Positions 5,181 to 31,044 of a stretch of DNA of 39,856 nucleotides are shown in pieces. Location of the stretch: the IMG/VR virus record IMGVR_UViG_3300027132_000047, positions 1-39,856 of that record. The stretch is one strand, 5' to 3'. The notes beneath the pieces were generated by a model. It saw only the letters and a list, made by a program, of their open reading frames with translations. It was not told the DNA's origin and ran no database searches. Source of the DNA: a virus. Taxonomy: Duplodnaviria; Caudoviricetes. A program made the position numbers and the translations under genes. Positions within the stretch are counted from its first letter, which is position 1, and each line of letters opens with the position of its first letter.

Positions 5181-5881
5181 TGAACATACAAGATATACAT
5201 AACGTCATACTGTTTTATCTAAACAAAGCTCAGCAGGGTTTTGTAACTCACTCAGAGATAGATCAGGTATTGGATAGAGCTCAGATGGCGTTATTCAATA
5301 AGTACCACTCTAACCCTATGATATACACCATCCCCGGTGCAAAAGAAAAGGTTGGGTACGGAGACTCACAAAGAATGGATGACGCTCTAGCGCCGTTCAA
5401 AGCTACATACACATTCACAAATAACGATACACCCGGCGGTGTAATATCTATGCCGTCTCAATATATGCACCTTATTGCTTTATACACTAGCTTGTATAAC
5501 AATCAGTTACAAAGAAACGTAATTAGTGCAGTTCAGGTTTTATCTGAAGAGGAGTTGATAGAGAGATTAAACTCTCAAGTTATTCCGGTAACGACAGATG
5601 ATCCTATTGCAATTATGAACGCCGCTAAGAAGATCCAGCTATTCCCCGACCAGCCATCTGCTGGTAAGGTTTATTACTTTAAGAGACCAGCTGTTCCTTT
5701 ATTTGCGTACACTCAATCAGGGCGTACTATCACATACAACTCTGGTGGATCTACACAGCTTGAATGGAATGAGGCTGATATTAATAATGTAATTGTAGAG
5801 GCTTTATCGTACTATGGATTGAATCTTCAGTCTGGTGATGTGGTACAATTCGCTCAACAAAAAATAAGTGAAGGACAATAA
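5180..5881 (+). CDS. Putative tail ring/adaptor protein (crAss/phi14:2-like)
   Basis: N-terminal LNKAQQGFVTHSEID..L.RAQ pattern. First of three coupled 200-250 aa genes before the muzzle-like gene. Confidence 0.6.
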   Translation: MNIQDIHNVILFYLNKAQQGFVTHSEIDQVLDRAQMALFNKYHSNPMIYTIPGAKEKVGYGDSQRMDDALAPFKATYTFTNNDTPGGVISMPSQYMHLIALYTSLYNNQLQRNVISAVQVLSEEELIERLNSQVIPVTTDDPIAIMNAAKKIQLFPDQPSAGKVYYFKRPAVPLFAYTQSGRTITYNSGGSTQLEWNEADINNVIVEALSYYGLNLQSGDVVQFAQQKISEGQ

Positions 5882-6498
5882 TGGCAACTACTAAATATAA
5901 AATATCGGAACAGATACAGAGGTTATTGAAAGGTAATCCTGTTATTAGTGCTCGTGTTCATATCAATGATGTTAAGTTATTGGTGGCGCAAGTTGCTAAC
6001 CAGTTGTTGAAGACTGAGACGTTTACTGTTAACATGGCTGAGGGTGATACAATTCCCCCGAACTGCATGATTTACACATACGAATCTGTTCCAGTTACAA
6101 CATACCAGACATCAAAAAGTAGATGCACTCTACCGTCAATACCAATTAATCTTCCTAAGAATATTGGAGTATTCCATATATCTAAGACTGATGCTATTGA
6201 CGAACCATTCATCCCTATCCCATCTGGGTTATACGGAATAGTAAAACCACAGGTATTACTTGGCGAACTTAGTGGGCTTATTGGGTACGAAGTATTTGGT
6301 AGCACTGTTGTGTTTACTAAGAACTTACCGGGCATGAGTGTTAATAATGTTTTTATTCGCCTTGTTGGCGTTGATTTAAATACTGTTGATGACTACACGA
6401 TCCTACCTATATCTTCTGATATGGAAGCTCAGATAGTTCAGACTGTATTTAATATTCTTGTTCAGGCTCCTCCAGCAGATAAACAAACTAACGACTAA
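5881..6498 (+). CDS. Putative tail ring protein
   Basis: Size, synteny and the C-terminal LPISSDMEAQIV pattern. Confidence 0.55.
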   Translation: MATTKYKISEQIQRLLKGNPVISARVHINDVKLLVAQVANQLLKTETFTVNMAEGDTIPPNCMIYTYESVPVTTYQTSKSRCTLPSIPINLPKNIGVFHISKTDAIDEPFIPIPSGLYGIVKPQVLLGELSGLIGYEVFGSTVVFTKNLPGMSVNNVFIRLVGVDLNTVDDYTILPISSDMEAQIVQTVFNILVQAPPADKQTND

Positions 6499-7259
6499 TG
6501 AAAGTATATACTTTAAATAATATAGTGAGAGGTGCGTTGATGTCTAGAGGATATCCTATGCACTTCTATTTGCAATTCTTACACTACGGCGTACAGTGCT
6601 TACGTGAATTAAATTTTGATGTACTTCAGAATGTAAAGAGCGTAAGGCTTCCGGTTAATAGCTATAAGGCGTGCACGTTGCCTATCGACTTTGTTGACTA
6701 CATAAGAGTAGGTACAGAACTTGGTGAGTACATAGATCCATGGGGTCCAAAAGAATCTTTTAACCGCCTAAATAAGTTTGATTCTCAAGGCAATAAAATA
6801 CCTTACGCAGATGTGGAATCGCAGAACTATTATCTACCAGCGAACTTCGACGGACTCTGGTATACAAATTATGCTAATGACAAAGGCGAACTTACGGGTA
6901 GAATATACAATGCTCAGCCTACTTTTCGACATTCATTCGAGATCGTTAGAGAAAGAAATGAGATACAACTAGACACTAGCTATAAGGGTACTGAGATTAC
7001 TATGGACTATCTAACAGATGGTTTAACAATTGATGCATCTAATGCAATACACCCATATGCTTCTGCAACCATAGAAGCTTATATCATATGGAAGATGAAA
7101 GATAATGGTCGCCAATATAACTTAGGTGATCGTGAATCTTCTAAGCAGGAATTTTACAATCAGCTTAGAATACTAAAAGGTAGAATGAACCCGATGGATA
7201 TAAACGATGTAAGAAGATCTCTTGCATACGGTTACGGTCCTACGATAAAAAATGCTTAA
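6498..7259 (+). CDS. Putative tail ring (tubular) protein
   Basis: RELNFD...LPIDFVDYIRVG motif resembles crAss-like ring proteins. Confidence 0.6.
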   Translation: MKVYTLNNIVRGALMSRGYPMHFYLQFLHYGVQCLRELNFDVLQNVKSVRLPVNSYKACTLPIDFVDYIRVGTELGEYIDPWGPKESFNRLNKFDSQGNKIPYADVESQNYYLPANFDGLWYTNYANDKGELTGRIYNAQPTFRHSFEIVRERNEIQLDTSYKGTEITMDYLTDGLTIDASNAIHPYASATIEAYIIWKMKDNGRQYNLGDRESSKQEFYNQLRILKGRMNPMDINDVRRSLAYGYGPTIKNA

Positions 7260-10200
7260 TGCCAAATACAAAGAAAATACCTATCGGTGGATTAAACACC
7301 GATGATGCAGAGTACCTATTAGATCCTAAGGAATATCTTGGCGGTCTTAATATTCGTTTTGCTACAACTGAGAATGGTCAGGTGGGTAAAATTTCTAACG
7401 TAGAAGGTACTATAGAAAAGACGCAGACACTTAATGAGTTTGGCGTTAGGAGTACATTTAATCTACCTGCTGGCACCAACGAAACAATTGGCGCGTACGA
7501 AGATACTTCTAACAGAAGAATCATTTGGTTTAACTGGAACTCTAGTGGATCACATGGCGTTTATTGTTATGATTTTGATACAGATTTAATTTATACTGTA
7601 CTTAAGAACGCCGACGTAACTGGTGGGTTAAACTTCCAGAGATCTAAGTTTATGCATAGCATAGCTCATATAGATAACATTATCTTTTGGACCGATGATT
7701 TCAATGAGCCAAGAAGAATAAACGTAGAGAGAGGTATTAAAACAAACCACCCTACATACGTTAGTAATGAAGGTACATACACTATACCTCTTGCTCAGTC
7801 AGCTATAACAATCATACGCCCTCAGCCAGTATACCCAGCAAACGTTGGATTCTATACTACAGTCAATGGCGCCGATGATTTAAATTTCGACACATACCAA
7901 TCTACTTATAGATTTGTTTATAAAGATAAGGAGTACAGTACATTCTGTACTTATTCAACTATACTTCCAACAGCAGGTGCTCTTGGCTACTTTAAATTCA
8001 TTATACCATTAGAACAGAAAATACCATCAGATATCGAAAAGATAGAGATGGCTGTTAGGTTTGGTATCAGTGGTAAATTATCTATAGTTCGTACTTGGTA
8101 TGCGGATAAGGATGCTGCTGCAATCGCTGCACATAACGCTGGCACTACAGCACTTGAATTCGACTACTATAATAATACTTTAGGAGTTAACGTTGACGAT
8201 GCTACGGCATCTAAGCCGTTTGATAGTGTACCAAGATTAGCTGGTACATTAGATATAACAAAGAATAGATTGTTCATGGGCGATATCCTACTTGGGTATG
8301 ACGCGCCGAATACAACATCTATTACACTGTCGCTATCTAATACAGCTGGTAGCAATGGTATGCCTGTATTTAAAAGCGGTTCTAGCTATAAGTATGGCGT
8401 TGTATTCTACGACGACTTTGGTAGATTCTGCGGTGTTGTTCCCGGTCCTTCTATAAGTGTACCAGACAGAACAGAGATTAATAGCCAGTTCGCTATTGGT
8501 ATCAACTGGACATTAAGTAACGCAAACGCAATAAACGAAATACCTGATTGGGCTAAATACTTCTCTGTAGTTAGAACAAAGAATAAGAGAACAGGATTCT
8601 TCCAGCAGTTTAAATCATCAGAGCTACGTGTAGCTTCAAAGAATGACGCTGGTGAGTATGTTCTAGGATTAGACACAACAAACGTAAAGGTGTTTGGTCT
8701 TGCAATAAAAGCTTCTGATCTATCTTTATTTGGTCAGGGGTATTCTTACCAACAGGGCGATCTTGTTAACATATATAACGGTCTTGTTAAATATACATCT
8801 AGAGTTTTAGATACATATTCTGATTTTATTATTGTTGAGTATGTATTAATCAGCAATCCATTAACATCTAACGATGAGGTTATTGTTGAGGTTTATTCTC
8901 CAAAGAAGACTTCTGAGAATGAAATCTTTTACGAGATTGCAAACAAAACTCCAATACTTAATCCGGGTACATCAACAAGAACTTATGGAGACTTGTTCTC
9001 TACAACTGGCGGTGATGTTACTTTAAAGACAAGAACTCGACCAGACACTACAACATACATCGTTGAGACAATGAACTATAACGATGGTATTTATACAGTA
9101 TGGGCGGACAATACAGGTCGTGCAGCTATTGAGATAAATGACAAGGTTGAAAGACTTAACACAGCAGTTTGTTATAGCAATGTATTTAACACAGCTAACA
9201 ATGGGCTTGTTTCTTTTGATGCATTATCTGTATCAATACTTCCATTAGATCTTGGCGCTATTGAAAAATTGATTAGCACATCTAAGGTTCAGTTCGAGGG
9301 AACTGTCATGTTAGCTATTGGTCAACAAGAGACCGCTTCTTTGTACATAGGAGAGACTCAGATATTCGATGCAAGTGGATCTTCATTCATTGCAAAGAGC
9401 TCGGGGGTAATAGGACAGGTTAACATATTAAGAGGAAGCTACGGAACAATAAACCCTGAGAGTGTTTACGAATGGAGCGGTGAGGTTTTATTTTTTGATA
9501 CAACTAAAGGTAGCTGGGTAAGATACAACAATCAGGGGCTATCTGAGATATCTCTAATAAAGATGTCTAAGTACTTTAAGAAGATAGGTTCAGATATATT
9601 AAACTATTATAAATCGCCAGAGACTTATAACTTTGCGAATAACAATTCCCCTATAAGGGTTCTTGGTGGTGTTGATCCTTTCCATACGGAGTACTTGATG
9701 AACATGCCAAGGATGACTGTTATCCCTCAGAACGAGGTTTTAACAGACATGGAGCTAGGGTCTAATACATATGCGTACACTCTAGCGCTTGCTACATTAG
9801 TGGCGGTTCCAGAAACCCTTACAGGTTTTACATACGAACTTGGTTTTGGACCATCTGCGTCTCAGACATTTGTTCTTACTGGTACAAACTTAAGAACAGG
9901 TATGATTGCAACTGTTACTGGCACCACGGACTATGAGGTGTCTTTAAACAATACAGCTTTCTCTCAGTCTGTTTCTATAGCAGAGGTGGGTAGCGCTATA
10001 TCTAGTACGGTATACGTTAGATTAAAGGCTGGCAGAGTTGTAGGTAACTATAATTCTCAGACTATTAATTGTCAAACGCAGAATGCAGAGCTATCTGATA
10101 CTGTTGTTTGTAGTGGTAGTGTTACTGCTAATGTTACTCCGAGAATTATTGCAACCCCGAGCTCGCTCACTGGGCTTGATTATGTTGAAGGATTTGGGCC

Positions 10201-10762
10201 ATCAATAGCTCAGCAGTTCACTATACAGGCGCTTAATCTTACAGCTGGCGGCGGCACAATCGCAATCGCAGCTACACAAAACTTTGAGGTGTCTGTTACA
10301 AACGCCCTACAAGGATTTAGTTCTTCAGTAGTTACGCTTCCTTACACAGGAACCGGCACACTCGCCAACAATACAATTTGGGTAAGATTAAAATCTGGTA
10401 GATTAGTTGGGTCATTTGGTCCTGAAAATGTAGGCGTTGCTGGTGGCGGCGCTTCTACTAACGTAGCTGTTAGTGGATCAGTTACAGTTCAGCCTCCTGC
10501 ATCATACTATGGTTATGGCGCACCTGCCAACTACTATACTACATCTGCTACTGCTTGTTCAAACTACAACACAGCTAGATACGTATACGCTGCAGAGGGT
10601 CATCCAAGTGGGGTAACAAGACTTTACAACGACACAGGATTACAGTACCCTATAACAGGCCAAAACAATAAGTGGTTGTCAATAAGCCTTAATGGAACTG
10701 GCGCTGTGTATTCTGTACAATTAGATAACGATGGCTACGTGATAGCTACAACAAGCTGCTAA
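7259..10762 (+). CDS. Tail muzzle/stabilisation protein, N-terminal part, with two Ig-like repeats and a Cys-bounded domain at the C-terminus
   Basis: Motifs GGLNTD...Y....NIR, IFWTDDFNEPRRIN, YKYGVVFYDDFGR, YGTINPES and GGVDP resemble crAss-like muzzle proteins. Confidence 0.7.
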   Translation: MPNTKKIPIGGLNTDDAEYLLDPKEYLGGLNIRFATTENGQVGKISNVEGTIEKTQTLNEFGVRSTFNLPAGTNETIGAYEDTSNRRIIWFNWNSSGSHGVYCYDFDTDLIYTVLKNADVTGGLNFQRSKFMHSIAHIDNIIFWTDDFNEPRRINVERGIKTNHPTYVSNEGTYTIPLAQSAITIIRPQPVYPANVGFYTTVNGADDLNFDTYQSTYRFVYKDKEYSTFCTYSTILPTAGALGYFKFIIPLEQKIPSDIEKIEMAVRFGISGKLSIVRTWYADKDAAAIAAHNAGTTALEFDYYNNTLGVNVDDATASKPFDSVPRLAGTLDITKNRLFMGDILLGYDAPNTTSITLSLSNTAGSNGMPVFKSGSSYKYGVVFYDDFGRFCGVVPGPSISVPDRTEINSQFAIGINWTLSNANAINEIPDWAKYFSVVRTKNKRTGFFQQFKSSELRVASKNDAGEYVLGLDTTNVKVFGLAIKASDLSLFGQGYSYQQGDLVNIYNGLVKYTSRVLDTYSDFIIVEYVLISNPLTSNDEVIVEVYSPKKTSENEIFYEIANKTPILNPGTSTRTYGDLFSTTGGDVTLKTRTRPDTTTYIVETMNYNDGIYTVWADNTGRAAIEINDKVERLNTAVCYSNVFNTANNGLVSFDALSVSILPLDLGAIEKLISTSKVQFEGTVMLAIGQQETASLYIGETQIFDASGSSFIAKSSGVIGQVNILRGSYGTINPESVYEWSGEVLFFDTTKGSWVRYNNQGLSEISLIKMSKYFKKIGSDILNYYKSPETYNFANNNSPIRVLGGVDPFHTEYLMNMPRMTVIPQNEVLTDMELGSNTYAYTLALATLVAVPETLTGFTYELGFGPSASQTFVLTGTNLRTGMIATVTGTTDYEVSLNNTAFSQSVSIAEVGSAISSTVYVRLKAGRVVGNYNSQTINCQTQNAELSDTVVCSGSVTANVTPRIIATPSSLTGLDYVEGFGPSIAQQFTIQALNLTAGGGTIAIAATQNFEVSVTNALQGFSSSVVTLPYTGTGTLANNTIWVRLKSGRLVGSFGPENVGVAGGGASTNVAVSGSVTVQPPASYYGYGAPANYYTTSATACSNYNTARYVYAAEGHPSGVTRLYNDTGLQYPITGQNNKWLSISLNGTGAVYSVQLDNDGYVIATTSC

Positions 10763-10763
10763 T

Positions 10764-11522
10764 ATGCTATATATAACTAACTTAACAATATCGACAGTAT
10801 TAGATAAGGTATACATGGTAGTAGCACCAGCTGGTGTTAGTGTGTTCTATTCTAATATAAAGATTATAAATAACGGAGGTACAGGGTACTTTGTTTCTAA
10901 CGGTTCTACAAACCTAAGACTAGAGTCCGCTACTTCTGGAACCGGCAACGTGGTTGTTACGGAACTACTTAGATCTTTTTATAATATAAACGATGGTCAA
11001 GGTGGTACTATAGCTTTCCAGCCAATGATAGATAAGTGGATTACGCAATACAGCTTTAGACCCGAGTGGATGACTATGGTTGGGAATAGGTTAGTAACCT
11101 TTAAGGGTGGTAAACCATATGTGCACGCCGGTCCTTACAATAGTTTCTATGGTCAATTGTGTGATACTTGTATAGCTGTAGCTCATAGTGAAGCTGGTAA
11201 TAGTATTAAGACATACAAGACCGTAGCAATAGAAGGGGATGTCCCAGATCGTATGCACGTAAGAACCGAGGTTCCTTACATACAGAGCACAGACGTGTTG
11301 GCTTTAGAGTTCTCTGTTAAAGAAGGCGTTAATTATTCTGAACTATTCAGAGATAGATTGTCGCCTAACGCTACTGGTAACTATAGCGATAAGCTATATA
11401 CCGGAGATGTTATTAGAGGTGAGTTGTGTAAGGCTATGGTTATATACACCCAACCTCAAGTACTTAAATCTACAAAGTTTATTGACATAGACTTTGACGG
11501 ATCTACCGGACAGACCGTATAA
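10764..11522 (+). CDS. Tail muzzle/stabilisation protein, C-terminal part as a separate ORF
   Basis: TIAF....KWITQYSFRPEW...NSFYG...KEG motifs, which I recall at the C-terminus of single-chain muzzle proteins. Confidence 0.6.
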   Translation: MLYITNLTISTVLDKVYMVVAPAGVSVFYSNIKIINNGGTGYFVSNGSTNLRLESATSGTGNVVVTELLRSFYNINDGQGGTIAFQPMIDKWITQYSFRPEWMTMVGNRLVTFKGGKPYVHAGPYNSFYGQLCDTCIAVAHSEAGNSIKTYKTVAIEGDVPDRMHVRTEVPYIQSTDVLALEFSVKEGVNYSELFRDRLSPNATGNYSDKLYTGDVIRGELCKAMVIYTQPQVLKSTKFIDIDFDGSTGQTV

Positions 11523-11590
11523 ACCACCCCCTGTTTTTAATAGATATACCCAAATTCTGGGTCATTTTTGCATACAATAAATAGAAGATT

Positions 11591-12220
11591 ATGGCACCAC
11601 TTATGATTGCTGGATTAGTAGCTCAAACCGCTGGTAGCGTTTTTGGAGGTATTAAGGGAGCTCAGATGATGAAGCAAGCAAAAGCAATAAATCCAAATTG
11701 GAATTTAAAAGAAAGTCAGGCTGCTAAGCAAATGCTAGGAACAGCGCAAACTCAATTGAATGCGCGTAACCCATTTGCAGAAGCGAGTCGTCAAGCTATA
11801 TTAGGCGGTCAAGCAAATGCTTTGGCTGGCGTAGAAAGAAACGCAATCGATCCGTCTCAGGCTTTAGCTATTATAACTGGCGTTACTGGTCAGACTAACC
11901 AATCCTTAATGGAGCAAGGTAGACAAGACGCCGCAGGTCAAGCTCAAAGAACAGCTAACTTGTTTAACGCACTACAGACTAATGTAGGTCAGGAGAATTT
12001 AGCTAACCAATTCATGGCACAAAAGTATCAAATGGATCTTGGTCAGAAGAATGCTTTACAAACAGCAGGCCAACAGAGCATAGTTAATGCAGCTACAAAT
12101 CTAGCTGGTACAATGTTTGGGGCAAACGCTCAAGATATGGGCACTAAGAACGCTGATAAGAATATGAATGCTGCCTTGATCAATCTCTTATCGGGTAAGG
12201 GGACCTCAAAAGGATTTTAA
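11591..12220 (+). CDS. Putative ejection/pilot protein
   Basis: A/G/Q-rich with a hydrophobic glycine-rich N-terminus. Sits after the muzzle. Confidence 0.6.
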   Translation: MAPLMIAGLVAQTAGSVFGGIKGAQMMKQAKAINPNWNLKESQAAKQMLGTAQTQLNARNPFAEASRQAILGGQANALAGVERNAIDPSQALAIITGVTGQTNQSLMEQGRQDAAGQAQRTANLFNALQTNVGQENLANQFMAQKYQMDLGQKNALQTAGQQSIVNAATNLAGTMFGANAQDMGTKNADKNMNAALINLLSGKGTSKGF

Positions 12221-12230
12221 AAATTTTATA

Positions 12231-13568
12231 ATGCCAGACGGAATACAAGCAATACAATTCGATCAGACCCCTAATCAGTTGCTCTACAAGATGGCGGAAG
12301 ATCTTCGCCAAGAGAAACGAATTCAGGAGCAAATGAAGAGGGAGGATGATGTTAGAAAGTTCAATGTTCTTTCTACAATAAATCCTAATGCCCTATATAA
12401 AGATTTTGATAAGCAGGTTGTAGATGCATCTATAAGCGGATTACAACAGAGGGTTGCTGAATATTTAAAGTCAAATCCTACAACAATGGATTTGCAATCA
12501 TTCATACAAAATAATGTTGGCGATATTGCTCAGTGGAGCGCCAAGACTACAGCTATTAGAACTGGTCTAGAATCTCAGATTCAAAAGATGAACAATAAGG
12601 CTGGCATAGATGTAGATACGCTATTCAAAAAGACAATTCAAAATGCACTTTACGATCAGAATGGACAACTTAAATCTGCAAAAGATTTAGATCCATCTAA
12701 AGATTGGATAACAGAAACATATGCAGCTAGCCCTAAAAGCTTTACTGATATGCAGCAGGTCGGGGGAGCTCTTTTAAAATCTATTAACGATGCTCCTAAA
12801 AAAACCACAACTGTAGATGTAACTACACAAAGAGGTAAGGTTATAAATGTTGAAAAGAAAAGTCTTGAGTATTCACCAGCATTCCAGCAAGTTAATACAG
12901 CTACTGGTAATATAGAATTTAAAAAGAAGGATGGCTACCTTGACGAATCAGCTTACAATTATTTTGTTCAACCGGGATCTCCAATGGAAGGTTACCTAGA
13001 GAACCAAGTAGATAGGATTGTTGATTCTTATAATAAAGATAAGTCTACCCAAAACAAATTAAAGATTGGTAGTGTAGATATTTCTGATCCGGGTAATAGA
13101 GAGTTAATTAAGAGAGCTTGGTTAACTAACTATGTTGAAAACACAGCTGGATCTAAACAACAGGACGTAACTAAAGATATAGTTAAGCCGCCAAGTATAA
13201 ATATCTTTAATCAACCTACCACAGCGGACCCTAACTTTGTTAGTCCAACACAGAGGATTAAGGAGATTGTATCATTAAATGATAACTTCTTGGGGAAAAA
13301 GGAAACTTCTGGTCAAGGTAATATTAGATATACTGTTACAGATCAATTTAAAGAACTACCTTTGTTTAAGAGTATTGGTACCGGTAAGACATATGGCCCA
13401 TCTGAGGTTGTGTTCCTTAAGAATATAAAGGGTGGCGAAGACCAATTTATCGTAAGAGAAAAGCCCGGCAAACCGCTTAAAGTTTATACAGTTAAACAAT
13501 GGAATGACTTTATTGACGGCACTTACATCGACCCATCAAAAGGGAAAGTTAGAGGTGTTGAAAGATAA
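12231..13568 (+). CDS. Putative internal virion (ejection) protein
   Basis: Lies between the pilot-like and giant proteins. Helical, Q/K-rich. Confidence 0.55.
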   Translation: MPDGIQAIQFDQTPNQLLYKMAEDLRQEKRIQEQMKREDDVRKFNVLSTINPNALYKDFDKQVVDASISGLQQRVAEYLKSNPTTMDLQSFIQNNVGDIAQWSAKTTAIRTGLESQIQKMNNKAGIDVDTLFKKTIQNALYDQNGQLKSAKDLDPSKDWITETYAASPKSFTDMQQVGGALLKSINDAPKKTTTVDVTTQRGKVINVEKKSLEYSPAFQQVNTATGNIEFKKKDGYLDESAYNYFVQPGSPMEGYLENQVDRIVDSYNKDKSTQNKLKIGSVDISDPGNRELIKRAWLTNYVENTAGSKQQDVTKDIVKPPSINIFNQPTTADPNFVSPTQRIKEIVSLNDNFLGKKETSGQGNIRYTVTDQFKELPLFKSIGTGKTYGPSEVVFLKNIKGGEDQFIVREKPGKPLKVYTVKQWNDFIDGTYIDPSKGKVRGVER

Positions 13569-13582
13569 TAAAAAGAAAGATA

Positions 13583-16500
13583 ATGGATATAAAACAAACG
13601 CTATTGAATTTTCATGAAACACTTAAGTCTAACCCAGAATTAAGTGACGATGAATTATTAAATAAATTTCCTGAGTTAAATAAGGATTCTTTATCAGCTG
13701 CGTTCGATTACTCTGCTACATTAGATAGTGGCAAGTATAAATCTGAAGTTGAGTTTGAAGACAAGTTCCCAGAATTCTTTCCTGTAAAAAAAAAAGAGTT
13801 GGATGGGCAGACTCTGCCAGAAGTTACTGTAAAAAGTACCTCCAAGTCTCAGTCACAATTGGGACAACCTGCACAGACTCCGACATCTGTATCAAATTCT
13901 TCTTTATCTGTATCTCAGCCAAGTTTGGCAACAGAGGTTGATTACTCCCCGTTATCAACAGAAGATCTAAGTAATAAGTACAAGGAATTAAAAACACTTG
14001 CTGATCAATATAAATCTAATATTGATAAGTTTAAAGCTGAAGGAGATTCTGGTAAGATTAGATTATCTGGTACCGCAAACGAATACAATAAAATAATCGG
14101 CGAACTTAATTACGTAGCCGACATGTATAAGATAAAGGCTAAGGACGCTTCATTACCTAAGTTTGATGTTATCCCACCTACCGGCGAGCCTATTGTAAAA
14201 GACGAGCGCCAGAAGGCGTCTGATATACTTAGGGTTAATCTAGCTGCATTAAAAGAGAAATCTTATTTAGAAGCTGGAGATCCTAACGCAAAGAACAAAG
14301 CGATATTTGAGGTTAATAAATCTTACAATGCAATTAACCAGTCGCCAGACTACTCTACTGCATTACAAAATCTTGGTAACTTAAAGCAACAAGTGTTTAA
14401 TGTTACTGCAGCAGATCCAGAATCAAGAGATTTATTAATGCAGAACCTTGGCGAAGATGCTAAAGGTATTTCTACATTCTTATTAAAGGACAGGAAGGCT
14501 ATAGAAAACTGGCAAGCTCAGGGTTTGAACCCAGCTCAAGGTGTAGCTTTAGATTACATAAAAGTATTCCAGCCAGAAAAATATAAGGCATTCCAAGAAA
14601 GAGCGACCGCTGCAGCTACGGGAGAAATGGCTGGGGTAGGTAAGCAGATTACTAATTTTGAATTAGAGAATACTGGTATTGGTATATTAAAGACAGGATT
14701 AACAGAGAGATACAATGCGTTACAAGAGTCTATAGTTAAAGCTAATAGAGGAGAGTTAACTGCAGAAGAAGCAAAGAAAGTAAAGTCAGATTCAGAAAAC
14801 ATTTCTAAGTGGCTTGACTATGTAGATAAATTAGAACAAGATCAGTACACTAAATATCCAGAGGCTATTTCATTAGAAATAGATAGAACATTACAGGATA
14901 TTAATAAACCAACTTTAGGTCAGGGAACAAAGGCTGCATTAAACTTAGCAAACTCTATATCTGGTACTTTCCAAGATGGAGTTAACGCAGTGTATGCCGG
15001 ATTGTTTTTAAACGATCAAGAAAGAATAAACAACGACTTAGAGATATTAGCTAAATCTAATACAGAGAATACATTAAACTACACTACTCAGAATCAATCT
15101 TTAATTAACAGACCGTTTCTTACAACTGTGTCTGATGATGTAAAAAAGAAGATTGATGAAATAGACAACTCTTCTATTTCTGATGAAGAAAAATACAAGC
15201 AAAAGTTTCAGATACTAAAGCAGGCTAGAAAGGATGGCAACATTTATACTGTAGTAAACCCTAATAAGTCTAAGGTTAACTGGACAGGCGAGGCCATACT
15301 AAACACTGTAACGAGTGTTGCGCCACAAGTTATTGGGGCCATGGTTCTTTCTGGAGCTACTGGTGGATATGGTGCTGCCACTAAATTAGGGCAGTTATCA
15401 AATCTATTCGCCGTTACAGCAATGCAATCTTACGGTCAAAGATTTAATCAAGCTAAAGAAGAGGGTTCTGAGAATCCATACTTTGATGCTGGAGTTGGCG
15501 CATTAGGAGATGCAAGTACAGAGCTTTTTGGCAATAACATTGCACAGATTAAAAGGGTTTTTGGATCAGGGAATGCTGGCAAGTTATTAGAAAAACTTTC
15601 TGATGGCGATTGGAAAAAATTAATGGCTAATAAGACAGGTGCCTTTAGAAATTTTGGTAAGGTATTATTAGAGCAGGGTAAAGATGTAGTTACTGAGTCT
15701 GGTGAAGAAGGACTTGCTCAAGCTTTAGATAACTTAAGACAAGGCAAACCAATTGGCGAGGGTATGAAAGAAACAATCCTTTCTACATCTATAGGATTCT
15801 TGCCATTAAAAATTATAGGTTTACCTATGGCGTTTAAGAGCGCCAATATGGTAGATAAATTTAACTTATACTCTGCAGGTTTTAATAAGAACACCACAAT
15901 AGCTGGTATAGATAACCAGTTAAAGGCTGGCGATATAAACAAAGAAGAAGCTGACAGAAGAAAGGGTATCGTAAATCAAGTGAACGGCATTATTAATTCT
16001 ATGCCAATGTTTGATGTTAACGGCAAACCTCTTTCTGATGATAACAAAGCGAAGTATGTTTTCAATCAATACATAAAACAGAATTCTAAAGACACGGAAG
16101 GCTTACCATCTAGTGTTGTTAATAATATAAACCAAACAGCACAGCAAGCTGACGCTGAGAATGGTGCAATATTAGAAGGTCAATCTGAAGTAACAATTAA
16201 ATCAAGTAAAGATGCCATTAGTAAAAGCGCAGGGCAAGTCGAGCCTACAATCGGCGATATCGGCCAACCTCAGGGAGTTGTACAAGGACAACAAGAAGTC
16301 GGGCAAGGAGAAGGGGAACAAGGGCAAGCCGCGCAGCCGGGAGCAAATGTTAGCGATAGCAATATCAGCGGCGAAGGGCAAGTAGCTAAGCCATCTGATT
16401 TCGGCGTATCCACTATAGCAAAGGGATTTGCAGAGTTAATGGATAAAGCTAAGAAATCTTTAGGTATTAACGGTATTAGCGTTGATGTTTATAATCAAGA

Positions 16501-19500
16501 AGACTACGATAAGATAGAAAAAGAAGGCGGTAAGTTTATTAAGAGCGCCGACGGTACAGCTGTTGGTGTATTAAAACCTAACGGCGAAATAGTTTCTATA
16601 GTAAAATCTGCAGATAGTAAACAAAAGAATGTAGCCCCAGCTATGATCGAGAAAATGAAACAGCTCGGGGGTCTATTCATGGACAACTTTGATATATACC
16701 TAACAAAGCAATACGAAAAGGCTGGGTATAAGGTTGTAGCAAGATTACCATTTAACGAAGAGTTTGCACCAGAAGGATGGGATGCAGAAGGTTCTCCTCT
16801 AAAGAACAAGCCTGATGTAGTATTCATGGCTAGAGAAGACTTAGCGCCAGATGAAGTAAAGGTGTTTGACAAGAACGATTACGATGGTGCAAAGGCTTAC
16901 ACAGAGGGTCTAGTTAAGGGTGCGACATTACCGCTTCAAACAATATCTATTGACGCCAATAATCAAGCAGATCTTGGTGAGGTGACAGTTAAGAAAACAA
17001 TACACAAGAAAGTAATATCTGATGTTAATAGAGCTGCACAAGCTTTAGCTAAGGTCGGTATTAAGTTTAATGTATACCAGAACGCAGAAGAGTTTACTAA
17101 GGCTACAGGTCAAGAGAAGTCTACACAAGGAGTCTTTAATGATGACAACGGTACGATTTCTATTAACTTAAGTGAGATTAATAATTCTGGCGATTGGAAT
17201 ATTGCATGGCATGAGGGTTCTCATCCTGTAATGAATATTATTAGGAACACGAACCGCCCACTTTATGATAAGATGGCGCAGGGTATAGCTGATTTGGCTA
17301 AGAAGAATCCATCTATTAAAGCGGTAGCTCAATGGGCCGGAGAGAATTACGAAGGTAAGGAGACTCAGGTTGATGAATCTATGGTTGAAACTATAGCTTT
17401 AATCGCCGACAATAAGATAGATCTAGATGCAATACCTCAGGGCTTAAGACAAGATATAATTGACTTTGTAAATAAGGTAGCTTCTTATCTTGGATTAGAT
17501 CCAATATTAAGCGACACATCTGCAAAGGCGTTTGTTGAAAAGGCTAAGGAAATATCTAATGCATTAAAGACTGGTCAAGATATTTCAGAGGTAGTAGGTG
17601 CAGAGAATGTTAGGGAGTATCAGAATAATCTAGACACGCCAGAGATTGTGGTTGCAGGGGAAATGAATAAGACCCCTCAAGCAAAAATATCTGACACCCC
17701 TGCTATTGATGTTTACGAGTCTAAGGAAACTGAGAAGCTTCCTGTAAAATCAATAGAAGATGTTTACAAAAAGTTTGATGGTAAGGCTGTGGCAATTAAC
17801 TCTGATCCTACTAGGGTTGGTGAATTAACGCTACCGTCTGGTAAGAAAATATTTATGTATGGCGGACCGGCTTACTTATCATTAAAAGATAACGTAGATG
17901 CTGGTGTTGGTTTTGCTACAACTCAACCATCAAAAGTTAAGACTTGGTCTACCTATTTAAAGAGCGTTTTCGGTGATAAAGATGGTGTAACATTAGTAAC
18001 TACACAGGCGCCAACTTCAATGATGGCGAACTCATATTCATTAAGATATGTTCTTGATGCTATCTCTACATTACCTAAATCTATATTAAAGTCTAAAGAA
18101 TTCAAGGACGAGTTCTTCGGTAAGGATCTAGTATTACTTAAGGATGCATTTGGAGAAAAAGGTTACAATGACTTTGTAAATAAGTATAAGAAAGCGGACT
18201 TGTCTGATAGTAAAGTTATCGACGGCATGATTTCTGAGATGGCGTACAAGGTTGGTGATGACAATAAGCCTGCAAGCTTCAAGGCAAGAGGTGCATTCGT
18301 AGGCAACCTATTAGGTGGCGTTGCACTGAAGGCAGATATTAAGGGAGTGGAAGGCGATAAAGGTTACGTATCTAAGAAGCCAACTAAGTTTATTGCCAAG
18401 CAATTATTTGACAGGTTAGGTTTAAACCAAGAAAAACTATTCTATGAAATAGGAGAAAAGTCTCTTGTTGACTTATACATGAATGAAGGGAAGTGGGGAA
18501 TGGCAGTAGCTGGATTTGAAACTAAGGCAGGCGCATCTATTGATCCGGCTGGCGGTGTGAAACATCCTTTGTTCAACGCTAAGTTCCCCGGCAGTGACGC
18601 CTTCTTGTTAGATGGCGCATATGAGATCGATAAATTATTTGCACCTCAAGATATTATATCTAGTGGTGGTAACCCATACACAAAGTCTGCAGCACAAATG
18701 CTAGCAGGTAGTATGTATGTGATGGGCGATAAGACAAAAGGTGAAAAGTCTTTTGAATACAAACCATCTCCTATTTCGGGTACTAAAATTCAGCAGAAGA
18801 AATCTGCAGTAGTTCTTGCTGAGATGGAGTCTATTGTTAAGACAGCAAAAGAAAACGGAACATACCTTAAGGCCCCTAACGGTAAGGCTACGAAACTTAC
18901 ACCTGATCAATGGGCAGAAGTAAGGACAAATAATTTCAAGAACTGGTTTGGTGATTGGGAGAAAGATCCTAAAAATGCAAGTAAGGTTGTGGATGCGAAT
19001 GGCGAACCTAAAGTGGTTTATCATGGTTCAGGACAAGTATTTGATGAATATAGTTTAGACTACGGAGGCACTAATACGGGGGCAAAGAACGGGACTTTAG
19101 GTTTCTTCTTTACAGACAACAAGAAGGTTGCGGATAGTTTTGGAGGCAATATGTATAATGTCTTCTTGAACATGAAGAATCCAATTGAGGCTGGGTATTT
19201 TTCTTATGATGCAGATGGAAGAATAGATAAAATAAACACTGTTGACGGTTATGAAAGTGTCAAGAACGCAATACTAAAAACATCCAGCAAGAATAATTGG
19301 ACAGATATTGATAACACGGATATTGATAAATGGAGGAATAAAATTACTGGCCTAGGGTATGACGGTGTAATAATTGATACTCAGGTAGACTCAAAAGAGA
19401 TTGTTGTTTTAGGTAAGGGTCAAGGTTACGCGAAACCTCACTTAATGCACATCGCGTTCGAACCTAATCAAATCAAATCCGCTACCGATAATACTGGCGA

Positions 19501-22500
19501 GTTCAGTAAGGCAAGCAATAAGATCCAACAGAAAGTTGGCAAGGTAGAACTACCTGATACTACAATAAAACAAATGACTGAAGATGATAAGGGCAACTAC
19601 TTGTTCTATCACTACAGCCCTAACAGCATAAAGGTTATTGACCCAAGCAAGTTTGGTAAAAACTTAGCTACAGGCAAGGACGAGCGTCCGGGTATTGGTA
19701 TCTCAATGTACTACACTAGACCTGACGTAAGAGAGCAGGGTGTACCCGGAGATTTCGGATATGTTGTACGTGTAAATAAAAACAAAGTATATCCTTTCAA
19801 TCAGGATCCGCTTAACTTGATCGAGCCTGCAAAGAGAATGTTTGAAAAACAATTCCCGGGGCAAGCGTTCGATACTAACAAACAAGTTGCTTGGGTTTCT
19901 AAAGCTGCGGCAGGTCGTGGATATCCTATGACTGTAGCAGAATGGAATATCAAAGGTAAGAAGTACTTGAGGGCTCAAACAACAGAGGCGTTGAAGCCAG
20001 AGGTTTATAGTAAAATAAAACCGGGCACAATTAATCAAGTAGAAATAAACCCTAGCCTAGAGAAGTTTAAACCTAACGCTAAGAAGCGTGGACAAACAAA
20101 GGCGTCTGGATTATCTCTAGAGGATCTTAAAGATTTCAACAACTTACCTAATGTAGAATGGGCTGTTAATACAAAGTACTTGCCGCTATCTGAATTTGGA
20201 ATTGAAAATCTAGATAAAGAGAATGTAAAGACTCTTGCAACTAAACTTGCTGAGGTAGAGGGTCCATACCAACCTATATTAAAAGCTATTGCTAAAACAC
20301 CTAACGCCGATAAGGTTAAGATGTATACGCTAGATCGTAAAAACAATACGCTTGGTGAGGTTGCTGGATTATACTCTCGTCCTAGGACTATGTTTGACAA
20401 GCCAGTTATTGGTATCACTACAGATAACTACATCAATCAGTACGCCGCTACGGTGCACGAGATGTTACACTGGGTTACTGTTGATAGTGTAAATAAATAT
20501 AAAGGCACTAAAGAGTATAAAGCTTTACAAGACATATACGATTACTTAAAAGCTACGCACCCAGAAATTAAGGGCACTAAAGCAGCTGGTGATTACTATG
20601 GACTACAGAACTTTAAAGAGTTTATGGCTGAGCTATTAGTCAACAAAAACTTTAGAGACAAGATATCTGGCGTAATGGCTAAAGATAAAGAAGAGTTTAA
20701 AGATAAGGTATACAAATACAATCAAACATTATCTAACGATATCATTACAACATTAGTAAACTATGTTCAAAAAGTTATTAAAGACTTGTTGGATAAGTGG
20801 GGTCAGGGTATTGACTTTAATAAGTCAATGCTTGATAACGCTACCGATCTAGCGACTAAAGCGTTCTTCAAAACACAGAACTCTGGTCAGTTATCTGTAG
20901 GTGGACCGAATATAGATGGCGATACTAGAAAGAGTATTGCTAACATGTTAGGTGTACTTAGCGACGCAGAAATCTCTAATGTACTTCAAGAAGAGAAGGG
21001 TCTTAGTGAGGTAGAAGCTATCAGATTAATTGAAGATGTTAAGTTTGATCCAGCATTGAATCCTACAATGGAAGATATAGTTGGTGAAACTGAAGAAGGC
21101 GAGAGAGCTCGGGGGCTTGCTAAAACTTTCCCTGCAAGAAACATAGATACAGTTGTTAAGATTAACGAAGAGGCTAAGAAGTATTTCCAAATATCTAATA
21201 AGCAGACAGCTGAAGAAGCTAGAGCATACACTGAAGGCAAGAACCCTGAAGATGTTTTAGATTACCTATTAACTCAACCTACAGATATACCTCCTAGAGT
21301 TAGGGTATGGATGTCTGGTGCTGCTATGGATAACATAGACATAGAGATTAATAAGGCACAGTTGGCCGGTGATACTGAAAGAGCTGCTAGACTATCAGAG
21401 AAGCAGGCACAGTTGATTAATCAGATTGCGCCGCTTGGTACTGAGCTTGGTCAGGCTATACAAGCGTTCAGAAGATTCTATGAGAACGCTAAAGGGTCTC
21501 CTTCTATGCTTGAATACTTTACTAAAAATATTTTAACTAAGGTAGAAAAAGAAAAGGGTTCTCCTTTAACAGAAAAGCAAAGAGAGGATATAGTAAAACT
21601 AGCTAAAGATTTACAACAAGCTAAGGAAGGCTTACCTAAAGACGAAGCTACATACGCTTTAGCTAACTATGTAGGAACCATAACTCCTGTTAGACCTACA
21701 GATATATTAGAAGCTATCTGGTACGCTCACATCCTGAGTGGTATCACTACTCAGTCTACCAACTTCTTCGCCAACTTATGGAATACATTTGCTGAAGGAA
21801 GCGTTACTGGTATCAGAGAGTCAATTAAAGCTAAGAGCCCAGCTCCATTCTTATATGCCATGAAAGGATTTTTAAACGGCGTAAGAGTTGGATTCATTGA
21901 GGGTGCTGATATTTTAAAGACAGGACTTGCAGCTCAAGATGCTGACAAGTATAAAGAAAATAATCTATTAGAATACTTCTCTTGGACCCAAACAAAGCTA
22001 GGTAAACTACTTGGCGGTAAGGTTGGTAAGGCAATGGATTATGCTGGTGGTTTATCACCTAAGGCTTTGAAGTATGTAGGGCGTGCACTAGCGGCTACAG
22101 ATGCTGCCTTCTCTAGATCTAACACAGAAGCTATGGCCAGAATGATGGCGTATAATATAGCTAAGGAGGAAGGCAAGACAAACCCTGACATGAAGATTAG
22201 AAAGCGTGTTGATGAGATCCTTAATAACACACCCGAGAATGTTGCTGCAGCTAAAGAGCAGGCCACCAAAGAAGGGTATGTTGATGGTAGCAGAAGATAT
22301 AAGCGCCGTGTTTATGAAATCATGGAGCAGGGTAGAGATAAGAATCTTACAAATCAGGCAGAGGATTATGGTACTAGGGTTACTTTAAACTACGAACCAG
22401 AAGGTTTTACAAGACCTTTATACAAGCTAGCTCTTGCAATGCAAAAGTCTACTAAGGTTACAAAGATGTTTATTCCTTTTACTCGTATCATTATTAACTT

Positions 22501-23557
22501 AACTGAGAACTCTTTAAACTATGCAGGCGCTGGTTATTGGAAAGCAATTACCGGGTCAACATCATCAGAGTCTGGAAGAAGAAAATTAACACCAGATGAG
22601 AGAGCTGACTTCGCCATCAAAGCTAGTATTGGGGTAGGTACTTATATCCTTCTATCAGGATTAACTGGAGACGATGAGGATGATCTATTTGAAATAACAG
22701 GTAATGGTACGGGAGATATTCAAAAGAACTTTGAATTAATGAAGAGTGGATGGAGACCTTATTCTATTAAGCTTAAGGATGGTAGATATATATCTTACAA
22801 AGATTGGCCAATCATGCCAGTGTTAGCTTCTATTGGAGCTCAGCATGATGCAGCTAAGTATGTAGATTCTAAGGAACCAACACCACAATCTAAGATTGCA
22901 ATGGCAGGATTTGTTAACTCTTTATGGGACAAGTCTGTAATGAAAGGTCTTCAAGACATGTTAGAAATTATAAGCCCTAAGCAGGAGTATAACCAATCAT
23001 CTAACATTGGCGATAGATTAATCAGTTGGGGATCCGATCAAGCTAAATCTGTAGGCATATCTAACTTTACTCAGCAGACAATTAAAATGATAAATGAGTA
23101 CGGGGATAATCCTATCAAGGCGGCGAAGGGTGTTGAAAGATTATACCGTGATATTCCTTACCTAAATGACGGATTAAATCCTATCTTAGATGTGTTTGGC
23201 GAACCTGTTACACCTAAGACTTCTGAGAAGTTGTTGCCTGTAACAGTAGGGGTGCCAAGTAAGGATGAGATATTGAGTGTGTTTAACGAGAACGGAGTAT
23301 TCATAGGTAAGCCTCAAGAGAGAACCATACTACTTGACGATGGATCAAGTAGACCAATGACGGATCAAGAGTACTATGAATTCACAAAGCTTTCTGGTAA
23401 AATAACTAAGAGGTTAATACAGGAAGAGTGGGCAGATGCTGCTGAGATATTAGCTATCAAAGATAAAAAGGAAAGAAGAAAGACTCTAGCCAAGTGGTCA
23501 GGTAATATTGTGTCAGGTGCAAGAGCAGAAGCAATGGGAGAATTATTCTACAAATAA
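13583..23557 (+). CDS. Giant polyvalent virion/ejection protein (GNAT-like, two zincin HExxH motifs, ART-like domains, LPD38-like C-terminus)
   Basis: HEGSH at 17210 and HEMLH at 20456. FKNWFGDW...EPKVVYHG...GYDG...NQIKSAT at 18860-19525. FIPFTR...GWRPYSIK near the C-terminus. Confidence 0.8.
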   Translation: MDIKQTLLNFHETLKSNPELSDDELLNKFPELNKDSLSAAFDYSATLDSGKYKSEVEFEDKFPEFFPVKKKELDGQTLPEVTVKSTSKSQSQLGQPAQTPTSVSNSSLSVSQPSLATEVDYSPLSTEDLSNKYKELKTLADQYKSNIDKFKAEGDSGKIRLSGTANEYNKIIGELNYVADMYKIKAKDASLPKFDVIPPTGEPIVKDERQKASDILRVNLAALKEKSYLEAGDPNAKNKAIFEVNKSYNAINQSPDYSTALQNLGNLKQQVFNVTAADPESRDLLMQNLGEDAKGISTFLLKDRKAIENWQAQGLNPAQGVALDYIKVFQPEKYKAFQERATAAATGEMAGVGKQITNFELENTGIGILKTGLTERYNALQESIVKANRGELTAEEAKKVKSDSENISKWLDYVDKLEQDQYTKYPEAISLEIDRTLQDINKPTLGQGTKAALNLANSISGTFQDGVNAVYAGLFLNDQERINNDLEILAKSNTENTLNYTTQNQSLINRPFLTTVSDDVKKKIDEIDNSSISDEEKYKQKFQILKQARKDGNIYTVVNPNKSKVNWTGEAILNTVTSVAPQVIGAMVLSGATGGYGAATKLGQLSNLFAVTAMQSYGQRFNQAKEEGSENPYFDAGVGALGDASTELFGNNIAQIKRVFGSGNAGKLLEKLSDGDWKKLMANKTGAFRNFGKVLLEQGKDVVTESGEEGLAQALDNLRQGKPIGEGMKETILSTSIGFLPLKIIGLPMAFKSANMVDKFNLYSAGFNKNTTIAGIDNQLKAGDINKEEADRRKGIVNQVNGIINSMPMFDVNGKPLSDDNKAKYVFNQYIKQNSKDTEGLPSSVVNNINQTAQQADAENGAILEGQSEVTIKSSKDAISKSAGQVEPTIGDIGQPQGVVQGQQEVGQGEGEQGQAAQPGANVSDSNISGEGQVAKPSDFGVSTIAKGFAELMDKAKKSLGINGISVDVYNQEDYDKIEKEGGKFIKSADGTAVGVLKPNGEIVSIVKSADSKQKNVAPAMIEKMKQLGGLFMDNFDIYLTKQYEKAGYKVVARLPFNEEFAPEGWDAEGSPLKNKPDVVFMAREDLAPDEVKVFDKNDYDGAKAYTEGLVKGATLPLQTISIDANNQADLGEVTVKKTIHKKVISDVNRAAQALAKVGIKFNVYQNAEEFTKATGQEKSTQGVFNDDNGTISINLSEINNSGDWNIAWHEGSHPVMNIIRNTNRPLYDKMAQGIADLAKKNPSIKAVAQWAGENYEGKETQVDESMVETIALIADNKIDLDAIPQGLRQDIIDFVNKVASYLGLDPILSDTSAKAFVEKAKEISNALKTGQDISEVVGAENVREYQNNLDTPEIVVAGEMNKTPQAKISDTPAIDVYESKETEKLPVKSIEDVYKKFDGKAVAINSDPTRVGELTLPSGKKIFMYGGPAYLSLKDNVDAGVGFATTQPSKVKTWSTYLKSVFGDKDGVTLVTTQAPTSMMANSYSLRYVLDAISTLPKSILKSKEFKDEFFGKDLVLLKDAFGEKGYNDFVNKYKKADLSDSKVIDGMISEMAYKVGDDNKPASFKARGAFVGNLLGGVALKADIKGVEGDKGYVSKKPTKFIAKQLFDRLGLNQEKLFYEIGEKSLVDLYMNEGKWGMAVAGFETKAGASIDPAGGVKHPLFNAKFPGSDAFLLDGAYEIDKLFAPQDIISSGGNPYTKSAAQMLAGSMYVMGDKTKGEKSFEYKPSPISGTKIQQKKSAVVLAEMESIVKTAKENGTYLKAPNGKATKLTPDQWAEVRTNNFKNWFGDWEKDPKNASKVVDANGEPKVVYHGSGQVFDEYSLDYGGTNTGAKNGTLGFFFTDNKKVADSFGGNMYNVFLNMKNPIEAGYFSYDADGRIDKINTVDGYESVKNAILKTSSKNNWTDIDNTDIDKWRNKITGLGYDGVIIDTQVDSKEIVVLGKGQGYAKPHLMHIAFEPNQIKSATDNTGEFSKASNKIQQKVGKVELPDTTIKQMTEDDKGNYLFYHYSPNSIKVIDPSKFGKNLATGKDERPGIGISMYYTRPDVREQGVPGDFGYVVRVNKNKVYPFNQDPLNLIEPAKRMFEKQFPGQAFDTNKQVAWVSKAAAGRGYPMTVAEWNIKGKKYLRAQTTEALKPEVYSKIKPGTINQVEINPSLEKFKPNAKKRGQTKASGLSLEDLKDFNNLPNVEWAVNTKYLPLSEFGIENLDKENVKTLATKLAEVEGPYQPILKAIAKTPNADKVKMYTLDRKNNTLGEVAGLYSRPRTMFDKPVIGITTDNYINQYAATVHEMLHWVTVDSVNKYKGTKEYKALQDIYDYLKATHPEIKGTKAAGDYYGLQNFKEFMAELLVNKNFRDKISGVMAKDKEEFKDKVYKYNQTLSNDIITTLVNYVQKVIKDLLDKWGQGIDFNKSMLDNATDLATKAFFKTQNSGQLSVGGPNIDGDTRKSIANMLGVLSDAEISNVLQEEKGLSEVEAIRLIEDVKFDPALNPTMEDIVGETEEGERARGLAKTFPARNIDTVVKINEEAKKYFQISNKQTAEEARAYTEGKNPEDVLDYLLTQPTDIPPRVRVWMSGAAMDNIDIEINKAQLAGDTERAARLSEKQAQLINQIAPLGTELGQAIQAFRRFYENAKGSPSMLEYFTKNILTKVEKEKGSPLTEKQREDIVKLAKDLQQAKEGLPKDEATYALANYVGTITPVRPTDILEAIWYAHILSGITTQSTNFFANLWNTFAEGSVTGIRESIKAKSPAPFLYAMKGFLNGVRVGFIEGADILKTGLAAQDADKYKENNLLEYFSWTQTKLGKLLGGKVGKAMDYAGGLSPKALKYVGRALAATDAAFSRSNTEAMARMMAYNIAKEEGKTNPDMKIRKRVDEILNNTPENVAAAKEQATKEGYVDGSRRYKRRVYEIMEQGRDKNLTNQAEDYGTRVTLNYEPEGFTRPLYKLALAMQKSTKVTKMFIPFTRIIINLTENSLNYAGAGYWKAITGSTSSESGRRKLTPDERADFAIKASIGVGTYILLSGLTGDDEDDLFEITGNGTGDIQKNFELMKSGWRPYSIKLKDGRYISYKDWPIMPVLASIGAQHDAAKYVDSKEPTPQSKIAMAGFVNSLWDKSVMKGLQDMLEIISPKQEYNQSSNIGDRLISWGSDQAKSVGISNFTQQTIKMINEYGDNPIKAAKGVERLYRDIPYLNDGLNPILDVFGEPVTPKTSEKLLPVTVGVPSKDEILSVFNENGVFIGKPQERTILLDDGSSRPMTDQEYYEFTKLSGKITKRLIQEEWADAAEILAIKDKKERRKTLAKWSGNIVSGARAEAMGELFYK
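16212..16385 (+). CDS. Overprinted 57-aa basic protein in the +1 frame of the giant gene
   Basis: Hand translation gives MPLVKAQGKSSLQSAISANLRELYKDNKKSGKEKGNKGKPRSREQMLAIAISAAKGK*. The start context is A-rich, and the sequence resembles MPLxKG..IS.N..EL...QA.AIA phage proteins. Confidence 0.7.
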   Translation: MPLVKAQGKSSLQSAISANLRELYKDNKKSGKEKGNKGKPRSREQMLAIAISAAKGK

Positions 23558-31042: not shown

Positions 31043-31044
31043 TT

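Follow-up and report, generated by a model that had tools for sequence, protein, structure and literature searches.

A small phage gene nested in the +1 frame of a giant polyvalent-type protein gene, probably older than the linker that encloses it

Introduction

In phage lambda, Rz1 is nested inside Rz: the whole of a small gene occupies the +1 frame of a larger one, and both frames are open. The same arrangement is formed in phage phiX174, where gene E inside gene D is a same-strand internal overlap (PMC8227390), and is found at the locus described here. According to the available text of PMC8227390, overprinting creates a new protein on an old frame, with the new frame mostly at +1. Our locus departs from the pattern set out in that text, since by the phylogenetic criterion its +1 gene appears to be ancestral and the enclosing linker new; moreover, the arrangement is labile, the small gene being nested, free or lost among relatives. 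Nested phage genes are already known; what is new here is an apparently old, mobile gene on the inside and a new linker on the outside.

The enclosing gene resembles the phage polyvalent proteins (Iyer et al., 2017; PMC5512222), which, in the main text of that paper, are likewise giant and multidomain, carry ART-PolyVal and HExxH domains together with variable cassettes, are encoded among virion genes and are predicted to be packaged. The word "overlapping" does not occur in that main text, whereas in the window (the whole stretch of 39,856 nucleotides analysed here, IMG/VR record IMGVR_UViG_3300027132_000047) the linker between two modules appears to be the second reading of an independent gene. 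The small product is akin to the DUF6496/phrog_2423 proteins, which include Pbunavirus gp21-like proteins and the N-terminal module of the Obolenskvirus prohead protease; it shares with them an MPL start, an N-x-x-EL helix and a Q-x-x-AIA helix. Unlike them, it has a ~13-residue K/G-rich loop between the helices and four extra residues in the N-terminal region, scores under the Pfam cut-off and is encoded within another gene. At the same place, the end of a syntenic structural block, Cellulophaga phage phi38:1 (Pervagoviridae) encodes gp101 and the Flavobacterium Elemovirus gp21, both annotated as structural proteins; gp101 (1,691 aa) is without a low-T nested ORF, and elemoA gp21 (3,694 aa) hides a different, 42-aa family that is unannotated in the record. 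A search of literature listings, from which most subscription papers were absent, showed no description of this nesting and no paper on DUF6496, and the available text of PMC7077304 does not treat the elemo phages.

Results

The giant gene and its phage

The window belongs to a tailed phage whose record is ~63% complete and contains one copy of the small gene; the sequencing runs in which the phage occurs are mostly riverine metagenomes. The giant gene (13583..23557, + strand; 3,324 aa) sits among virion genes and closes a structural block whose gene order is shared with phi38:1 (gp95-gp101) and elemoA (gp27-gp21). The upstream structural genes of this block (5180..13568, + strand; 233, 205, 253, 1167, 252, 209 and 445 aa) run in the same direction and likely share one late transcript with the giant gene; three of them match PHROG virion structural proteins. 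The 1,167-aa protein matches 76 phage records, 75 of which are Flavobacterium or Cellulophaga phages, with 22-26% identity among the 20 matches listed. Given the matches of the structural block and its synteny with phages of these two genera (phi38:1, elemoA), we infer that the phage infects Bacteroidota. Since the window encodes a tyrosine integrase (35078-36421, - strand), a temperate lifestyle is suggested. Other genes of the window encode a primase-helicase (27002-28738, - strand), a YqaJ exonuclease with a Rad52/Erf-like annealing protein (30047-31839, - strand) and an M15 endolysin (23564-24070, + strand).

Two domains of the giant protein stand out. The ART-PolyVal domain (aa 1804-1974; 18992..19504, + strand) is recognized by PF18760 with E 3.7e-24 and 86.5 bits against a cut-off of 31.2, and a conserved domain with an invariant HExxH motif (aa 1140-1350; 17000..17632, + strand), which we take to be a zincin-like peptidase, was used to retrieve relatives independently of the small gene. 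Because ART-PolyVal and the conserved HExxH domain occur together, the giant gene is, by its domain content, of the phage polyvalent protein type; LPD38 was found in 2 of 16 scanned relatives. Contigs of other phages from the same metagenomes align to the window at the DNA level almost only at the nested gene (16257-16386) and at the lead-in to ART-PolyVal (~18920-19026).

The nested frame

The preliminary description of this DNA had placed a 57-aa ORF, ATG 16212 to TAG 16385, in the +1 frame of the giant ORF, and its coordinates, frame and peptide proved exact: a complete small gene (16212..16385, + strand) lies within host codons 877-935 of ORF 13583-23557. Its protein has 14 K/R and 4 D/E, a net charge of +10, whereas the host-frame reading of the same DNA (16211..16387, + strand; 59 aa) is a stop-free, acidic, G/Q-rich linker under weak sequence constraint, with 12 G, 11 Q, 8 D/E and a single K/R, in keeping with the low-complexity G/Q/E linker noted earlier. 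The segment is also, as had been claimed, richer in GC than its surroundings (0.55, vs 0.35 and 0.39 in the 500-nt flanks). Assembly error is ruled out, since two contigs are identical to the window in and around the nested region: a DNA contig covering 15669-16543, from a sequencing run that is possibly the source sample, and an RNA-library contig covering 16078-16374 both show zero differences. The length of the ORF alone is no evidence for a gene, because a +1 ATG ORF of at least 57 aa appears in 42% of 500 codon shuffles of the giant gene, which itself holds a second such ORF besides the nested one. What exceeds chance is the set of homologues and the selection pattern (both below), and likewise the composition: none of the 57 codons of the nested gene has T at the third position, as compared with 18% T at the matching position of the host gene.

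Nested and free relatives

A search with the window peptide, as had been proposed, recovered 31 homologues among 32 candidates, with 57-82% identity. In the best 80 of 242 viral loci the small gene is nested in 32 and free in 48, which bears out the earlier remark on its likeness to stand-alone small basic phage proteins; these copies are related by descent, so that the counts are not independent events. All 32 nested copies lie in the same +1 phase, at residues 570-1351 of hosts of 1,095-3,634 aa. Every one of the 48 free copies has 1-12 stops in the host phase; two of the 48 are broken or mis-picked and were excluded from later counts. A further 80 metagenome loci, partly from the same phages, comprise 23 nested, 46 free and 11 unparsed copies. 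Free copies adjoin other small K/R-rich genes, ahead of packaging genes.

A tblastn search of 50,697 phage records with the window peptide gave zero matches. Cultured phages are reached by the nested short form of the protein from locus L090, which matches 192 phage records from many hosts. Named bacterial genomes yielded three loci, none from a cultured host, with one nested copy on a MAG contig. Two further loci deserve mention: at L023:8001-8231 a nested copy has lost its stop, lengthening the small protein to ~76 aa, and at L055:121-303, as in L056, a free copy with a single host-phase stop and 10% third-position T lies under a 121-codon open frame.

Selection on the two frames

Across 30 distinct nested copies, the small frame shows an identity of 0.69 and the host frame one of 0.46, with the small frame ahead in 435 of 435 pairs, an apparent conservation that is inflated because the first 80 loci were chosen by similarity to the small protein. 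Difference rates at small-frame codon positions 1, 2 and 3 in these copies are 0.29, 0.20 and 0.42. Since the loci had been picked through the small frame, we added a site-based synonymous test on 12 disjoint pairs (24 of the 30 nested copies), in which host-synonymous third-position change was found at 12 of 511 codons inside the overlap vs 213 of 587 in the 120 codons upstream. Conservation of the +1 frame and suppressed synonymous variation, both named in the preliminary description as the tests to be made, are thus found. Isolated substitutions in same-length pairs were silent for the small frame only in 42 cases, for the host frame only in 5 and for neither in 8; the possible substitutions number 95 small-frame-silent, 103 host-silent and 252 silent in neither frame. 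The site test, together with retrieval through host domains (see below), lessens the selection bias, though it does not abolish it. Purifying selection acts on the alternative frame, which is the mark of an internal overlapping gene.

The host frame leaves its own trace. T at the small-frame third position makes up 1% in the 30 nested copies vs 28% in 35 free ones, and T before AA, AG or GA occurs at 0 of 691 sites in nested and 213 of 747 in free copies; the host frame is thus kept open through the overlap. As a consequence of this T depletion, all host stops are gone, nearly no host codon starts with T, and a hydrophilic linker is left. As read from these alignments, selection preserves the residues of the small protein, while to the giant protein this DNA contributes no more than an acidic, flexible linker.

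The pattern bears on the reading of the ORF as a dead relic or as the shadow of a conserved host linker. ORFs of such length do arise by chance, and true relics are known in relatives; however, the host frame is the less conserved of the two although its synonymous sites hardly change, and true relics can be told apart by loss of the ATG and, in two cases, of the linker as well. We regard this reading as the least probable of all those considered, and it is practically certain that the nested gene is real and under selection.

The nested start

The likely internal initiation region (16192..16211, + strand) has no Shine-Dalgarno sequence, almost no predicted structure and a +1-frame stop six codons before the ATG. 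Its context had been called typical of SD-less Bacteroidota initiation, and the window indeed has A at -3, -11, -12 and -13, with G at -6. At -3/-12/-13, A is enriched in the 30 nested copies (0.70/0.77/0.77, vs 0.37/0.42/0.37 at 3,212 other +1 ATGs), the corresponding frequencies at 111 long-ORF starts of these phages being 0.66/0.57/0.53. A at -6, which is absent in the window, is not enriched (0.40 vs 0.35), and no Shine-Dalgarno sequence was seen at any of the 30 nested starts. Among 109 +1 ATGs, the nested site of the window ranks third by start profile and first by lack of structure, to which the lysine codons after the ATG contribute. In F. johnsoniae, adenines at these upstream positions raise initiation (in the available text of PMC6847099). 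The nested start hence combines the features of SD-less starts in Bacteroidota, namely A at -3, -12 and -13, no Shine-Dalgarno sequence and low structure. TAnnTTTG, which we take to be the Bacteroidota-type promoter motif, was found within 300 nt in 1 of 30 nested copies, below background, and in 9 of 44 free ones. Since the AUG is conserved, the upstream sequence is A-rich and unstructured, and no promoter of its own was found, SD-less internal initiation at the nested AUG on the late message is highly probable. In the four RNA runs compared, of six that contain the phage, thin contig cover extends over the whole 20 kb of phage sequence and may be DNA.

Two other ways of using the small frame can be weighed against internal initiation. 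In a programmed +1 frameshift, ribosomes would produce a shorter giant protein ending in the small module, and the longer relatives that carry this module internally or at the C-terminus (12 of 120, see below) indicate that a free N-terminus is not always needed. This is very improbable, however, because all 30 copies have a +1 stop ahead of the ATG at a distance of 1-20 codons (median 5); in addition, no common slippery sequence is visible, the ATG is retained in all 30 copies and the start context resembles that of real starts. Just as improbable is a purely regulatory translation of the short frame with an incidental peptide, e.g., by coupling to a start codon within the giant gene. Ribosomes in the second frame could conceivably alter the output of giant protein; yet selection acts on the small frame at the level of residues, a free copy elsewhere appears to substitute for the nested one, and coupling to a host restart is unlikely since a host-frame ATG near the nested stop occurs in 0 of 30 copies.

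Loss, replacement and direction of origin

Retrieval from the host side used two host domains, one of which yielded 30 loci, 12 of them already known to be nested. Among the other 18 hosts, L091 nests a family member and so does L090, in the short form; L093, L095 and L098 contain relics; five have an empty giant gene and a free small gene elsewhere in the genome; in five more, another ORF is nested at this position; and the remaining three are without any trace of the family. In L093 and L095 the ATG is lost and the linker carries an in-frame deletion (105 nt in L093), while L098 shows a similar decay next to L099. Loss of the ATG in close relatives had been named as a sign that would speak against the gene; such loss does occur in these three loci, but as decay of the whole gene, accompanied in L093 and L095 by in-frame deletion of the linker. 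Since the host flanks remain 91% and 100% identical to those of L094 despite the deletion, the giant protein does not need the linker. In a loose first look with the long-form profile, 13 of 22 genomes gave no match to the small gene, and among these are 4 of the 5 genomes with a completeness of at least 90%; with the three relics, this makes the gene dispensable in some lineages.

The host segment directly before the nested gene (aa 776-876; 15908..16210, + strand) is 38-42% identical to its counterparts in L085-L087, giant genes that contain neither nested gene nor linker, and this exceeds the identity to any nested host (at most 35%). The genomes of these loci, like that of L084, carry a free small gene beside small basic genes, before HNH and GroES-like genes. 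In classical overprinting the nested protein has the narrower distribution and is without free homologues; here 48 of 80 loci are free. Because free copies are far more widely spread and no linker is seen apart from the small gene, we consider it probable that the frame of the small gene came first and that of the linker later, following the distribution criterion for the ancestral frame given in the available text of PMC8227390. The preliminary proposal that a formerly free gene was absorbed agrees with the wider free distribution and with the homologous giant genes that lack both small gene and linker, whereas its term "overprinted" probably has the direction reversed.

Capture of the small gene likely took place where two domains of the giant gene meet. 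Since free copies carry 1-12 host-phase stops, a one-step insertion would in most cases have disrupted the giant gene, and a gradual route is more likely, in which an upstream frame grows through the small gene while third-position T is purged. At L124:1371-1532, and in L125 and L126, an upstream small basic gene overlaps the first ten codons of a free copy in the giant-host phase, a possible intermediate. A peptide tree of 65 rows, built by a quick method, has four nested/free changes and is compatible with one origin; it fixes neither the direction nor the number of origins. As 11 free copies fall weakly among nested ones in this tree, escape from the nested back to the free state is possible. 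Low third-position T, the sign of a recent escape, was absent in the 12 free copies checked (values 0.24-0.44).

Protein family, fold and function

The nested gene encodes a DUF6496-like protein, a putative long form of the phrog_2423 family, with a predicted two-helix hairpin; the AlphaFold model of the window peptide has helices at residues 12-27 and 43-55 and a mean pLDDT of 86. Its match to DUF6496 (PF20106) reaches 21.9 bits (E 2.3e-4), just below the curated cut-off of 24 bits; P0012 (28.5 bits) and P0019 (29.1 bits), both closely related to it, exceed this value. We therefore describe the window protein, from its profile matches, as DUF6496-like and not as a formal member. The phrog_2423 profile matches the window peptide weakly (E 0.038), the relative P0025 with E 6.7e-9 and the nested short form of L090 with E 2.8e-15, which assigns the short form to phrog_2423. 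Structure-based searches brought few leads: a profile search of solved structures gave one, unrelated hit (E 0.86), Foldseek found none in the PDB at E 0.001 or better, and VIA-align returned generic hairpins (best Z 5.0, none at Z >=8). In BFVD there were weak matches only (best E 0.44), including small proteins of RSB1, BcepNY3 and BcepF1, and in the ESM Atlas a DUF6496-containing cluster at 0.94, which is a lead only.

Genomic context points to the phage head. Family members occur in the head modules of phiEap-2, KBS-S-2A and EPa61, and the family module forms the N-terminus of the AP22 prohead protease, a module that the family matches in profile-profile comparison with E 2.5e-10 and 96.8% probability. 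In the best 120 of 1,205 longer family matches, the module lies at the very N-terminus in 108 and internally or C-terminally in 12; 41 of these 120 carry the protease-associated PF09979 and come mostly from close Acinetobacter phages. According to the available text of PMC11456595, Pa193 gp21 (7.4 kDa, 207 nt), which starts 19 nt after the 837-nt gp20, was detected in mature virions by LC-MS with a Mascot score of 288. EPa61_78 matches gp21, as described in that text, in position and length, and itself matches phrog_2423 with E 2.6e-28; the profile of the window family meets EPa61_78 with 47% probability. By the position and length shared with EPa61_78, Pa193 gp21 is a probable distant family member, and its tie to the window peptide is indirect. 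Since head-module synteny, prohead-protease fusions and the detection in Pa193 virions favour a role in the head, we lean towards a minor head-interior or head-assembly protein as the product.

The preliminary description had instead proposed a basic core or DNA-binding protein; in this view the gene is likewise nested and internally initiated, but its product would chiefly condense DNA in the core. This would fit the net charge of +10 in 57 aa, the place of free copies among small K/R-rich genes before packaging genes, and the presence of a probable distant member in virions. However, the wider family has M1, P2, L3, N and Q as its invariant residues, with no lysine among them, the Pbunavirus and AP22 forms are near neutral, and the prohead-protease fusion points to protein contacts; the invariant pattern agrees with a function in the head no less well than with the condensation of DNA, which we consider unlikely as the main function. 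Less likely still is a product that acts in the infected cell, in late regulation or on a host target, and is no head component. Some relatives do lie outside head modules, in phiCbK among tRNA genes and in RSB1 after lysis genes, and the gene is lost in some lineages, but the synteny, the protease fusions and the Pa193 detection argue against such a role. In the favoured head protein, the MPL...N...Q-AIA hairpin would bind head components, and the lysine-rich loop may possibly touch packaged DNA.

Other nested frames

The elemoA giant gene gp21 contains two unannotated ORFs, one of 42 aa at host residue 1221 and a lysine-rich one of 40 aa at residue 883. In the elemoA_7-9A record (NC_055852.1; L138:30468-30596 and L138:29454-29576) both are basic +1 ORFs with almost no third-position T; their starts lie near 53210 and 54224 of NC_055852.1, and the cultured host of elemoA is Flavobacterium sp. 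BAL314. The 42-aa ORF belongs to a Cys/Trp-containing family with many relatives and is matched in 68 elemo records and two others. This family is nested in a frame of at least 300 codons in 71 of 80 loci, and eight of the nine others are cut by contig ends. Giants account for 8 of the 71 hosts; most hosts have ~400 aa, the family being nested near the N-terminus of such a gene at L144:5880-7037, L182, L205 and ~60 more of L143-L222. The three ~400-aa hosts inspected are flanked by the portal gene on one side and by a virion gene of 480-500 aa on the other, which is the usual position of scaffolding genes.

Further +1 ORFs were seen in relatives of the giant gene. A different, Q/L-rich ORF of 56-62 aa occupies the same junction in L106:9672-9842, L107:9759-9935, L109:9690-9866, L110:3833-4009 and L111 (~host aa 868), where it is conserved barely better than the host frame. 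ORFs of 53-75 aa occur in L091 (host aa 1548), L093/L094 (host aa 1993/1711) and L096 (host aa 2242); they are D/E-rich, unlike ordinary shadow frames, and are candidates for more nested genes. Those of L091 and L093 directly precede the segment that leads into ART-PolyVal. At L082:8988-9110, in a host whose HExxH domain is the closest to that of the window (67%), there is a 40-aa K/P-rich +1 ORF with one third-position T.

Discussion

We herein describe a small phage gene that lies complete within the coding sequence of a giant virion-associated protein and that, in other phages, stands free. Taken as a whole, the proposed mechanism, in which a captured conserved gene is translated from its own internal AUG into a two-helix head protein, seems fairly probable to us, with its separate parts held as strongly as stated above. 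By lying nested, the small gene would stay part of the operon of late structural genes, and a copy standing free elsewhere could replace it.

With somewhat less assurance, and only by a slight leaning, we extend this view to virion-protein linkers in general. They may be a parking place for old small head genes, with several unrelated small families shuttling between free and +1 nested states; their hosts would be giant cargo genes as well as the ~400-aa gene that separates the portal gene from the capsid gene. The small genes would then form a widespread class of virion proteins that is absent from phage annotations, and the linkers would be born as shadows of captured genes.

The locus offers an overlap that was probably formed in reverse: the old gene persisted while a linker arose on top of it, and relatives display the free, the nested and the decayed state. 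It also indicates that a G/Q/E linker in a giant phage protein can be the second reading of a hidden gene, of a kind that gene callers discard. Since a second nested family (71 of 80 loci) is present in the cultured Flavobacterium phage elemoA, this phage may serve as a test system for internal SD-less initiation and for the role of the small proteins in the phage head.
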